Source: an uncultured Thermoplasmata archaeon (GTDB lineage Archaea; Thermoplasmatota; Thermoplasmata; RBG-16-68-12). From it: DNA of 64,000 bases. Positions 42,880-56,641 of the stretch are shown here, piece after piece. The notes under the pieces are model-generated. The model did not search any database. It was not told the origin of the DNA and saw nothing but the letters and a program-made list of their open reading frames with translations. How positions within the stretch are numbered: the stretch's first letter is position 1; each line of letters begins with the position of its first letter. The DNA is taken from the NCBI GenBank assembly GCA_963768855.1, contig CAVYJM010000011.1, positions 96,001 to 160,000 on the forward strand, read 5' to 3'. A program made the translations under genes and the position numbers.

Positions 42880-43536
42880 TTGATCTGTGGTGTGGACGAA
42901 GCGGGCCGGGGGCCGGTCCTCGGTCCCCTGGTTGTCGCGGGCGTGATGGTCGAGTCCGACGTTCCGCTTCGGCATCTCAACGTGCGTGACTCGAAGAAGC
43001 TGTCTCCGGAGCGGCGCGAGCTCCTCGCCCCAGAGATTGAGAAGGTCGCGAAGTGCGAGGTCGTCGTCGTTCCCGCGACGGACATCGACGTGATGCGGGC
43101 CCAGATGTCCCTCAACGAATTCGAGGCCCAGCTGTTCGCACGAATCGTCGAGCGGCTCCACCCGGAAACCGCCTACGTCGACGCGGTCGACGTCGACGAG
43201 ATCGAGTTCAAGCGCGACATCCTGAAGCTCGTGCCGTTCGAAGTGGAGATCGTGTCGCAGCACGAGGCGGACGATCTCTTCCCCGTCGTGAGCGCCGCCT
43301 CGATCGTCGCGAAGGTCCGCCGGGACTCCGAGATACGCCGCATCGAGGCGGAGATCGGGGAGCCCATCGGTTCCGGATACCCATCCGACCCGGTGACCAT
43401 CGCGTTCCTGGAAAAGTGGATTAACGAGAAGGGGTCTCCGCCGCCCCACACCCGGTTGACTTGGGACACGACGCGGCGCCTTCTTGCCGAGTCCAAGAAC
43501 CGGAAGCTGGACGAGTACGTGCGGGGCAAGCAATGA
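42880..43536 (+). CDS. rnhB: Ribonuclease HII
   Basis: GVDEAGRGPVLGP, DSKKL, VSAASIVAK, GSGYPSDP. Confidence 0.95.
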   Translation: MICGVDEAGRGPVLGPLVVAGVMVESDVPLRHLNVRDSKKLSPERRELLAPEIEKVAKCEVVVVPATDIDVMRAQMSLNEFEAQLFARIVERLHPETAYVDAVDVDEIEFKRDILKLVPFEVEIVSQHEADDLFPVVSAASIVAKVRRDSEIRRIEAEIGEPIGSGYPSDPVTIAFLEKWINEKGSPPPHTRLTWDTTRRLLAESKNRKLDEYVRGKQ

Positions 43537-43862
43537 AGGATCTCCTCGAGGCCCTGATCGCGAAGTTCAACGCGAAAGTCGATGCCGATTCGGCCCTGAG
43601 TGCCGAGATCGGCGACCTGCAGAGGACCGTGCTGATCGAGCTCTCGAACGGGACGAAGTGGCACTTCACCCTCAAGGACCGCCACGTCGCCGGCCTCTTG
43701 GACGGCGGCGTCGAGCGGCCCGACCTCGCGCTGCTCACGGACGAGGAGACCCTGCGGGGCCTCCTTCTCCGGGAGATCGGCCCGTTCAAGGCCTACGCGA
43801 CCGGGAAGCTGAAGTTCAAGGGGAGCCTCGACGACCTCCTCCGGTTCCGCAAGTTCTTCTGA
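43533..43862 (+). CDS. SCP2 sterol/lipid-binding domain protein
   Basis: PDLALLTDEETL..L......PFKAY.TGKLKFKG..DLL. Confidence 0.8.
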   Translation: MKDLLEALIAKFNAKVDADSALSAEIGDLQRTVLIELSNGTKWHFTLKDRHVAGLLDGGVERPDLALLTDEETLRGLLLREIGPFKAYATGKLKFKGSLDDLLRFRKFF

Positions 43863-43879: not shown

Positions 43880-43885
43880 TTTAAA
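43880..43885 (+). promoter_or_regulatory. TATA box of tRNA-iMet
   Basis: TTTAAA about 30 nt upstream of tRNA position 1. Confidence 0.7.
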
Positions 43886-43954
43886 CCCGAGGGGCCAATC
43901 CTCTCGAGCCGCGATAGCGGGGTGGGGTAGCCAGGATATCCCGTCGGGCTCATA

Positions 43955-43983
43955 CCCCGGGACTCCCGGGTCCCCGGTGAGAC
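43955..43983 (+). other. tRNA intron 1 (29 nt, canonical 37/38), BHB
   Basis: Central helix CTCA/TGAG; bulges TAC and ACA; lower helix CC-GGGAC/GTCCC-GG. Confidence 0.9.
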
Positions 43984-44005
43984 ACCCGGAGATCGATGGT
44001 TCAAA

Positions 44006-44037
44006 CGGTTCCGAGGACCTCCCTCGGTCCCTGAGAT
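44006..44037 (+). other. tRNA intron 2 (32 nt, T-loop 59/60), BHB
   Basis: Central helix TTCA/TGAG; bulges AAC and ATT; flanked by T-stem GATGG/CCATC and CCGAGG/CCTCGG. Confidence 0.88.
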
Positions 44038-44054
44038 TCCATCCCCCGCTATGC

Positions 44055-44062
44055 CTCTTTTT
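44055..44062 (+). terminator. Oligo-T terminator after tRNA-iMet
   Basis: CTCTTTTT immediately downstream of the tRNA. Confidence 0.5.
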
Positions 44063-44174
44063 GTGACCCGAAATCGCCTCGCGCCGTGCGAGGACCATCG
44101 CTACCATTGATTCTCAGGTCGCAACGTTTATCGTGGCACCCCTCGTCGGGCGGCCTATCTCTAGGCCGGAGCTT

Positions 44175-45257
44175 ATGGAACGGGTCAAGACAGGCGTCGA
44201 CGGCCTCGACGCAATGCTCAGCGGCGGGTTGCTTCCCGCGCGGCCCTATGTCATCTCGGGGCCGACGGGGAGCGGCAAGACGATCCTCGCAACACAGTTC
44301 CTGCTGGACGGGCTCAGGCGGAACGAGCCCTGCCTCCTCGTGACCCTCGACGAGCCGCCGATCGAGGTCAAGTCCAACATGGGGGTGTTCGGCTGGAATC
44401 TCGACCGGCTCAAGATCCTCGACGCTACGCCCGACGTGCGCGCGCACAAGCGTCAGCGCTCCGTGATCGACGTCGGGACGGCGCTCGACGTCCGGGACAT
44501 GGAGGACGTCAGCGACATCCGCCAGTCCTCCCAGATCCGGGCCCTCGAGGTGACCGTGCACAGCGTCCAGAAGATGATCAAGCAGGAGTTCTTCGGCCGA
44601 CTGGAGAAGACGAAGGAGCGCTACAAGCGCATCGTCATCGACTCGATGACCGCCCTGAAGATGTTCTCGATGAAAGGCGAAGACAGCCGTATCCTCATCC
44701 AATCCTTCATGCGCTTCCTCGCCGAGCTCGAGTCCACGACCCTGATCGTATCGGAGCACCTCGATCGCAAAGCGATCGAGACCGAGTTCTTCCTCAGCCG
44801 GGGCGAGGTCCGCCTCCACAAGTGGATCGACGGAGCGACCGTCCGGCGGGCCATCTCGATCGAGAAGTTCCGCGGCAGCCGGTTCGACGACCACATCCGG
44901 CCCCTCGCGATCACCTCGGGCGGGCTCGTCGTGTACCCGGACCAGCAGGTCGCGATGGTGAACGGCACGAGCGCGAAGGGGTCCGAGACCCTCCTCGAGA
45001 TGCGGATCATCGACGACGTGGCCAACGTGCTCGAGGCCGCCTTGCGCAAGGTCGACGAGGCCCAGCGGCGCCAAATTCCCATCAAGGACATTGAGGTCTC
45101 TCTCTCCCGCGCGATGCTCCACTTCCAGCGCAAGAACTACCAGAAGGCGCTGAAGCAGGCCCTGGCCTGCAACTCCGAGCTCGAGCAGCGCCTCGGGATC
45201 GTCCCGCCCCCGCCCGTGACTTCCGTTCCGCCGCCGCCGAAGGAGGTTGCGCCGTGA
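44175..45257 (+). CDS. KaiC/RAD55-like RecA-superfamily ATPase with C-terminal helical extension
   Basis: KTGVDGLD.ML.GG, GPTGSGKT, RIVIDS, IEKFRGS. Confidence 0.88.
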   Translation: MERVKTGVDGLDAMLSGGLLPARPYVISGPTGSGKTILATQFLLDGLRRNEPCLLVTLDEPPIEVKSNMGVFGWNLDRLKILDATPDVRAHKRQRSVIDVGTALDVRDMEDVSDIRQSSQIRALEVTVHSVQKMIKQEFFGRLEKTKERYKRIVIDSMTALKMFSMKGEDSRILIQSFMRFLAELESTTLIVSEHLDRKAIETEFFLSRGEVRLHKWIDGATVRRAISIEKFRGSRFDDHIRPLAITSGGLVVYPDQQVAMVNGTSAKGSETLLEMRIIDDVANVLEAALRKVDEAQRRQIPIKDIEVSLSRAMLHFQRKNYQKALKQALACNSELEQRLGIVPPPPVTSVPPPPKEVAP

Positions 45258-56531: not shown

Positions 56532-56641
56532 GCTCGGGTCGCCTAGCTCGGTAGGGCGCGGCGCTGGAGTCGGCGGGGGTTCCCCGCCGCTAGCAACGCC
56601 GTGGGCGCAAGCCCTCGGGAGTTCAAATCTCCCCCCGAGCG
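56532..56641 (+). tRNA. tRNA-Ser(GGA) with 26-nt intron at 37/38
   Basis: Acceptor GCTCGGG/CCCGAGC; anticodon stem CGGCG/CGCCG; long variable arm; T-arm GGGAG-TTCAAAT-CTCCC; G discriminator. Confidence 0.93.
56570..56595 (+). other. tRNA-Ser intron, strict BHB
   Basis: Central helix CTGG/CTAG; bulges AGT and CAA; lower helix CGGCGGGG/CCCCGCCG. Confidence 0.9.

Follow-up and report, generated by a model that had tools for sequence, protein, structure and literature searches.

Sequence reading and ARAGORN placed a 136-nt initiator tRNA-Met gene at positions 43916-44051 (+) of the window, by which we mean the whole 64,000-nt stretch of DNA from an uncultured Thermoplasmata archaeon that was analysed here. 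When 43955-43983 and 44006-44037 are excised in silico, a 75-nt archaeal initiator tRNA-Met is left. All parts of the gene lie on the plus strand. Exon 1 (43916..43954) supplies tRNA positions 1-37, comprising the 5' strand of the acceptor stem, the D-arm, the 5' strand of the anticodon stem, the CAU anticodon and A37, and reads AGCGGGG UG GGGU ... CUCAUA. It is followed by intron 1 (43955..43983), which is 29 nt long, occupies the canonical position 37/38 and has a strict bulge-helix-bulge (BHB) motif. Exon 2 (43984..44005) supplies positions 38-59, that is, the 3' strand of the anticodon stem, the variable loop, the 5' strand of the T-stem and the T-loop segment UUCAAA, and reads ACCCGG AGAUC GAUGG UUCAAA. 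Intron 2 (44006..44037) is 32 nt long, lies in the T-loop at position 59/60 and also has a BHB. Exon 3 (44038..44051), reading U CCAUC CCCCGCU A, completes the molecule with positions 60-73: U60, the 3' strands of the T-stem and acceptor stem, and A73.

The gene sits between an SCP2-family protein gene upstream (43461..43862, +; Pfam PF02036, E 2e-09) and a KaiC-like ATPase gene downstream (44133..45257, +; Pfam PF06745, E 2.4e-40), the latter of which served as our synteny anchor. A TTTAAA sequence at 43880..43885 (+), approximately 31-36 nt upstream of the tRNA 5' end, resembles a TATA box and is likely to act as the promoter element; the motif GGTTTAA(A/G) is kept at equal distance in the closest relatives, L001, L002 and L030. 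Downstream, a run of five T residues (44058..44062, +) is a likely archaeal transcription stop, and T-runs also follow the initiator gene in the same three relatives.

The earlier note on this DNA had proposed that removal of 29 nt and 32 nt would produce an archaeal initiator tRNA, and ARAGORN indeed calls the spliced 75-mer as tRNA-Met(cat) with a regular cloverleaf. With intron 2 alone removed, the program still returns tRNA-Met(cat), now with a 29-nt intron, i(40,29); it makes no call on the unspliced 136-nt precursor. Three consecutive G:C pairs closing the anticodon stem are a hallmark of initiator tRNAs, and the spliced product has them at G29-31:C39-41, invariant in 29 relatives. It also has the A1:U72 terminal pair named as an initiator criterion in PMC8450103, again invariant in 29 relatives. 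The T-loop reads UUCAAAU, the discriminator base is A73 and CCA is not encoded.

Both junctions fit the hBHBh' arrangement of a 3-nt bulge, a 4-bp helix and a second 3-nt bulge, with a flanking helix on each side. In BHB1, the anticodon stem forms the outer helix, the bulges are UA^C and AC^A, and the central helix CUCA/UGAG is made of four Watson-Crick pairs out of four; the inner helix consists of 2 bp, a C.C mismatch and then 5 bp. In BHB2, the outer helix is the T-stem and the bulges are AA^C and AU^U. Its central helix, UUCA/UGAG, has three Watson-Crick pairs and one G.U pair in the window genome, with an A.G mismatch beside the 5' bulge in 19 of 29 relatives, and its inner helix has 2 bp, a 2x2 internal loop and then 6 bp. 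What is unusual about this gene is the position of its second intron and the lineage in which it occurs, not the shape of either motif.

An unconstrained minimum-free-energy fold reproduced BHB2 exactly, and RNAalifold recovered the intron 2 hairpin. Around intron 1, RNAfold and RNAalifold both favoured alternative pairings, and BHB1 is not the thermodynamic optimum in isolation. Because the energy model prefers other pairings in this G+C-rich arm, thermodynamics alone does not establish BHB1. Within the genus, intron 1 has no variation that separates BHB1 from the alternatives. We therefore dropped folding energy as a discriminator for BHB1 and turned to orthologs and sister-genus variation instead.

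The exon 1 pattern was searched in 401 genomes of the class with up to 3 mismatches allowed; 190 matched, and 40 representatives were sampled for intron state, with families given coded labels. Both introns are present in the window's own family, in both of its genera. Elsewhere in the same order, families f2 and f7 have the 59/60 intron only, family f6 has the 37/38 intron only and family f5 has neither. The initiator gene of most other orders is 75 nt long and intron-less, and four genera belonging to three families of other orders (f21, f22 and f23) have the 37/38 intron only. The intron-less orthologs read ...CTCATA|ACCCGG... across joint 1 and ...GGTTCAAA|TCC... across joint 2, and the 75-nt genes are collinear with the spliced product. 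Since these genes run straight over both predicted joints, the splice sites are fixed independently of any motif, and the match of the intron-less orthologs to the predicted joints excludes a chance match of the junctions. Sister families with zero, one or two introns also form a natural series for the study of intron gain and loss. One initiator gene from a different order (L072; G153:C77:12731-13051) has an insert of 131 nt at 59/60 that forms a perfect BHB; it was either gained independently or is ancient, and its length leaves room for other content.

We gathered 31 related loci through the downstream KaiC-like gene, all of them from uncultured Thermoplasmata MAGs, among them RBG_16_67_27, RBG_19FT_COMBO_69_17 and EA_ soil MAGs. 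These MAGs and the window genome probably belong to Ca. Angelarchaeales, the EA_ soil MAGs being presumptive members; the first genomes of this order (RBG-16-68-12) were recovered from Rifle aquifer sediments, in the RBG data set (PMC9038741). The two-intron gene occupies the same place, between the same two protein genes, in 31 of 31 related loci. Across 29 distinct aligned sequences, no exon column varies; exon 1 is identical in 29 of 29 relatives and agrees with the intron-less orthologs as well. Mean pairwise identity among the 29 relatives falls from 100% in the exons to 93% in intron 1 and 67% in intron 2. Invariant exons beside diverging introns indicate that selection acts on the spliced product.

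The same alignment supports the proposed structure, in which 95% of 1305 pair cells are paired, compared with at most 61% when the partners are slid by 1-3 columns. Five pairs in the inner-helix hairpin of intron 2 have changed on both sides in a compensatory manner, and the observed covariation score was reached by none of 500 shuffles. For intron 1, compensatory changes occur in the sister genus only: in g2 the hairpin stays paired through changes of G:C to A:U and of C:G to U:A, and the alternative pairing favoured by energy breaks. The earlier proposal of a BHB at both junctions is thus borne out by the 3-4-3 geometry at each, by covariation and by the agreement of ortholog joints.

Two features of the introns stand apart from these patterns. 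Intron 1 is nearly invariant in sequence (93%), and its C.C mismatch is kept in the window's genus and in the sister-genus sequence L038; control of initiator tRNA supply by the excised intron or by the precursor is a less likely explanation of this conservation. In intron 2, the lower stem co-varies and the loop varies, unlike the apical stem GAGG/CCUC (window positions 44013-44016 and 44022-44025; alignment columns 99-102 and 109-112), in which the three pairs AGG/CCU are invariant in 29 of 29 sequences and the outermost pair is G:C in 21.

The initiator is one of several disrupted tRNA genes in this genome. Our census combined Rfam hits, a BHB scan and a search anchored on the T-arm and acceptor stem with local excision, and the remaining loci were settled by hand. 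It gave 48 tRNA genes that cover every codon box and include exactly one initiator, a set that is complete only when intron-containing genes are counted. Eleven of these genes contain a total of 15 introns, eight at 37/38, five at 59/60 and two in the D-loop; seven introns are thus non-canonical, and three genes have more than one intron. This agrees with the earlier suggestion that the lineage has an expanded intron repertoire. The 59/60 introns, all 31-33 nt, are found in the initiator, a second CAU tRNA, Lys-UUU, Lys-CUU and Leu-UAA, and the D-loop introns in Lys-UUU and Pro-GGG, so that at least six tRNA genes have non-canonical introns, the sole initiator among them. Lys-UUU, with three introns, lies at G000:C6:475061-475224; Lys-CUU, with two, at G000:C6:954852-954987; Pro-GGG, with its D-loop intron, at G000:C6:930241-930354 (-); and Leu-UAA, with its 59/60 intron, within G000:C6:924340-924470 (-). 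The CAU tRNA with a 59/60 intron is present twice in identical form, on a 4-kb contig (G000:C16:1434-1539) and on the main 1.1-Mb contig (G000:C6:1074410-1074515), which is probably assembly redundancy in line with the 7.7% contamination/duplication figure for this assembly.

Two other search strategies were abandoned. Genome-wide ARAGORN calls with long introns (200-2800 nt) were discarded, as those that we inspected were coding sequence, and a tRNA search permitting three long excisions produced many spurious "tRNAs". Searches for copies of the introns elsewhere in the genome returned chance-level matches of 12-18 nt only, and therefore sequence identity provides no evidence for recent intron transposition.

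The earlier note had also warned that standard scans might miss the initiator gene, and they did: neither ARAGORN nor Rfam at gathering thresholds detected it in the whole window, and it is missing from the list of the genome-wide Rfam tRNA search. Because the initiator is invisible to ARAGORN and Rfam defaults, completeness or "missing tRNA" statistics will be wrong for such genomes. Those of the order will appear to lack tRNA-iMet, both tRNA-Lys, tRNA-Leu(UAA), tRNA-Pro(GGG) and one further CAU tRNA.

Taken as a whole, the sequence evidence argues that this locus is the working initiator tRNA-Met gene, present once and interrupted by two BHB introns that are spliced out, a reading to which we assign a probability of roughly 0.88. 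Transcription would give a precursor of ~136 nt plus short flanks, and folding would extend the anticodon stem with one BHB and the T-stem with the other. A single EndA would then cut after the second nucleotide of each 3-nt bulge, and RtcB, for which the genome has one gene, would ligate the three exons. The two introns would be freed, probably as circles, and end processing and CCA addition would yield the 75-nt initiator tRNA. Excision could take place in either order, because the two motifs do not overlap.

A Pfam search of the genome found one EndA gene, P0001 (G000:C17:54944-55963, -), encoding 374 aa with the domain order PF02778-PF01974-PF02778-PF01974 (N-C-N-C); a second EndA-family gene, such as a separate α or β subunit, was not found in the genome by Pfam. 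Among solved structures, P0001 is matched best by an artificial β-α fusion of the M. kandleri enzyme (5x89, E 5e-37). Repeat 1 of P0001 aligns to the structural β unit of 5x89, and the Tyr, His and Lys residues of repeat 2 align to the M. kandleri catalytic triad given in PMC5829648; all three residues are invariant in 11 orthologs. By these alignments, P0001 is classed as a fused two-repeat, α'2-like EndA in which only repeat 2 is predicted to be catalytic. Its structural repeat matches the full Pfam C-domain, in contrast to the structural α' units of Thermoplasmatales, Halobacteriales and Archaeoglobales, which have a deletion in the C-terminal domain (PMC5829648).

This architecture is the opposite of what the analogy with broad-specificity enzymes in the earlier note would predict. 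At the L1/L2 site, where the A. pernix enzyme bears the Crenarchaea-specific loop (CSL), P0001 reads GYFGKIVGRRLHLSL; relative to P0001, A. pernix has 11 additional residues at this site and ARMAN-2 has 7. The interval between the catalytic Tyr and His is 7 residues longer in ARMAN-2, an insert that we take from its position to be the L3 loop, and P0001 has no insert there. In its catalytic repeat, P0001 aligns collinearly with the strict α4 enzyme of M. jannaschii. The inserts by which broad-specificity EndA is recognized, a loop bearing a conserved Lys beside the catalytic pocket (L1/CSL or L2/ASL) or the C-terminal L3 insert, have no counterpart in it at these sites. Ten EndA orthologs from across the class, drawn from families with T-loop introns, with canonical introns only and with no initiator intron, have the same architecture and the same loop length. 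At the sequence level, no innovation of the endonuclease tracks the introns. We considered "RR" in the EndA β-turn as a marker of T-loop introns and rejected it, since family f7 has the 59/60 intron yet reads DSS.

These features set the gene against the published picture, which the background given in the earlier note had summarized in agreement with PMC4090602, PMC4033280 and PMC5829648. In that picture, single canonical introns accompany the α4 and α'2 enzymes of euryarchaea (PMC4090602), broad-specificity enzymes are associated with multi-intron genes (PMC4090602, PMC4033280, PMC5829648), and disrupted tRNA genes track L1-L3 inserts in EndA (PMC5829648). In vitro, the α'2 enzyme of A. fulgidus, which has no such loop, "hardly cleaved" even a canonical BHB placed in the D-loop until the CSL was grafted onto it (PMC3241643). 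The initiator described here is therefore a known kind of gene in an unexpected lineage, and what is surprising is that essential non-standard introns occur alongside a loop-less α'2-like EndA.

One response to this mismatch would be that motifs outside the anticodon arm are beyond the reach of a loop-less α'2 enzyme, and that EndA alone does not remove the T-loop insert, and perhaps other non-standard introns; an accessory factor, modification of the RNA beforehand or another nuclease would then be required. The A. fulgidus result, the field's model linking disrupted tRNA genes to L1-L3 inserts, the lack of an insert in P0001 at the L1/L2 site or between the catalytic Tyr and His, and the equal EndA architecture of relatives with and without T-loop introns all lean in this direction. 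We nevertheless regard such a requirement as improbable. The T-stem of the initiator carries a well-formed BHB that is maintained by covariation, which is the signature of recognition by EndA itself, and no second EndA-family gene was found. The A. pernix enzyme, acting on a D-loop intron, required no extra protein subunit, guide RNA or modified nucleotide. Moreover, a BHB at 59/60 leaves the T-loop unfolded, and the tRNA core responsible for hindering cleavage in the D-loop may therefore not form.

A broader proposal, which we advance tentatively and consider somewhat doubtful, is that a fused, loop-less α'2-like EndA processes essential introns of the T-loop and D-loop in Ca. Angelarchaeales and in some other Thermoplasmata. 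Were it true, a positional and partly relaxed breadth of substrates could emerge in the absence of all three known loop inserts; its source might be the complete structural repeat or the basic residues (K..RR) of the β-turn that stands in place of the CSL. The model in which loop insertion drives tRNA gene disruption would then need revision, and a whole order with a loop-less α'2-like EndA would rely on 59/60 and D-loop excisions to make essential tRNAs. Because the enzyme is small and encoded by a single gene, and the substrate is only 136 nt, this question of EndA specificity is directly testable in vitro.

Several known systems resemble parts of this arrangement. The multi-intron genes of Thermoproteales (Crenarchaeota), which SPLITS and tRNAscan-SE 2.0 have catalogued (PMC8450103; Sugahara et al. 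2008 as cited there), similarly have several short BHB introns per gene, including some outside the anticodon loop, and similar introns occur at one position in different tRNAs of a genome (PMC8450103). Removal by EndA followed by ligation is the accepted mechanism for these genes (PMC8450103). Thermoproteales differ in belonging to another phylum and in having an (αβ)2 EndA with the Crenarchaea-specific loop, as opposed to the loop-less fused α'2-like enzyme here, and their intron load per gene is 0.84 (PMC8450103) compared with 0.31 in the window genome. The position of intron 2 has counterparts in ARMAN-2, where tRNA-Cys(GCA) and tRNA-Pro(GGG) have 59/60 T-loop introns and a strict hBHBh' is recorded for tRNA-Pro(GGG) (PMC3239211); that organism differs in tRNA identity, in lineage and in its three-unit ε2 EndA, which has a specific loop of its own that is absent here.

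Another parallel is M. kandleri, whose pre-tRNA-Glu(UUC) contains two introns and whose EndA is loop-less (PMC5829648). That EndA is a two-gene (αβ)2 enzyme, whereas the fusion in P0001 is natural, and for M. kandleri one relaxed D-loop intron is described, in a single tRNA (PMC5829648), compared with at least six tRNA genes with non-canonical introns here. A disrupted T-arm and dependence on a BHB are also features of the initiator tRNA-Met of Thermofilum pendens, as cited in PMC4090602, but that gene is circularly permuted and the present one is a collinear gene with two introns. A 2014 review (PMC4033280) lists multi-intron tRNAs in Crenarchaeota, N. equitans, M. kandleri, M. thermautotrophicus, Korarchaeum and ARMAN, and Thermoplasmata are not in that list; neither PMC9038741 nor a 2026 preprint on Asgard tRNA introns mentions tRNA introns of Thermoplasmata. 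Our search of the open-access literature found neither tRNA introns in this order nor a two-intron initiator.

The remaining alternatives concern the gene itself. It could be a decaying or silent copy, with initiation served by a second tRNA gene absent from the assembly. MAGs frequently lack some tRNA genes, and as this one is 93.6% complete with 7.7% contamination, an unassembled second copy retains a small probability. Searches of the assembly by blastn-short, in which the mature tRNA, the unspliced precursor and the individual exons served as queries, found no second initiator, nor is there any other initiator-like sequence in the genome. The exon 1 pattern, which would also catch an intron-less copy, matched exactly once in 28 of 28 genomes of the same genus. 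Taken with the invariant exons and diverging introns of the 29 aligned relatives and the synteny of 31 of 31 related loci, these results make a silent copy very improbable. As the only initiator found in the assembly, the gene would make translation initiation depend on two excisions, as the earlier note had anticipated; the splicing itself is predicted.

Mature tRNAs are seldom captured in metatranscriptomes. In four soil metatranscriptome runs from two studies, contigs from close relatives hold the unspliced gene together with its flanking protein genes, and none joins across either intron, although contigs of this kind cannot show that the spliced form is absent. Because they span the flanking protein genes, the contigs may represent DNA carry-over or precursor. 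That these RNA-library contigs contain the unspliced form only might suggest that one or both inserts are retained in the mature tRNA as expansion segments, a notion that is scarcely credible given that a 32-nt hairpin in the T-loop would abolish the elbow between T-loop and D-loop, that splice motifs flank both inserts in exact register, that orthologs in which either insert is missing are otherwise identical in the loops, and that the sequence of intron 2 drifts freely except for its pairing.

Most of the related loci (among L003-L031, L030 excepted) have a long predicted leader-trailer duplex around the initiator gene (-36 to -63 kcal/mol, with 50 nt upstream and 40 nt downstream included), which begins directly after A73 and stops ~10 nt before A1. 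Its arms co-vary (GACCGCC../..GGCGGUC; CUCGA/UCGAG against UCCGA/UCGGA), and a 3-4-3 BHB was not seen in the duplex. The window's own gene is without this stem and has the close TTTAAA box instead.

The window contains a second tRNA gene, a tRNA-Ser(GGA) at 56532-56641 (+) that has a long variable arm and, at the canonical position, an intron of 26 nt. By default ARAGORN wrongly calls this gene tRNA-Gly(ccc), and under the -i option the call, again wrong, is tRNA-Ala(ggc).
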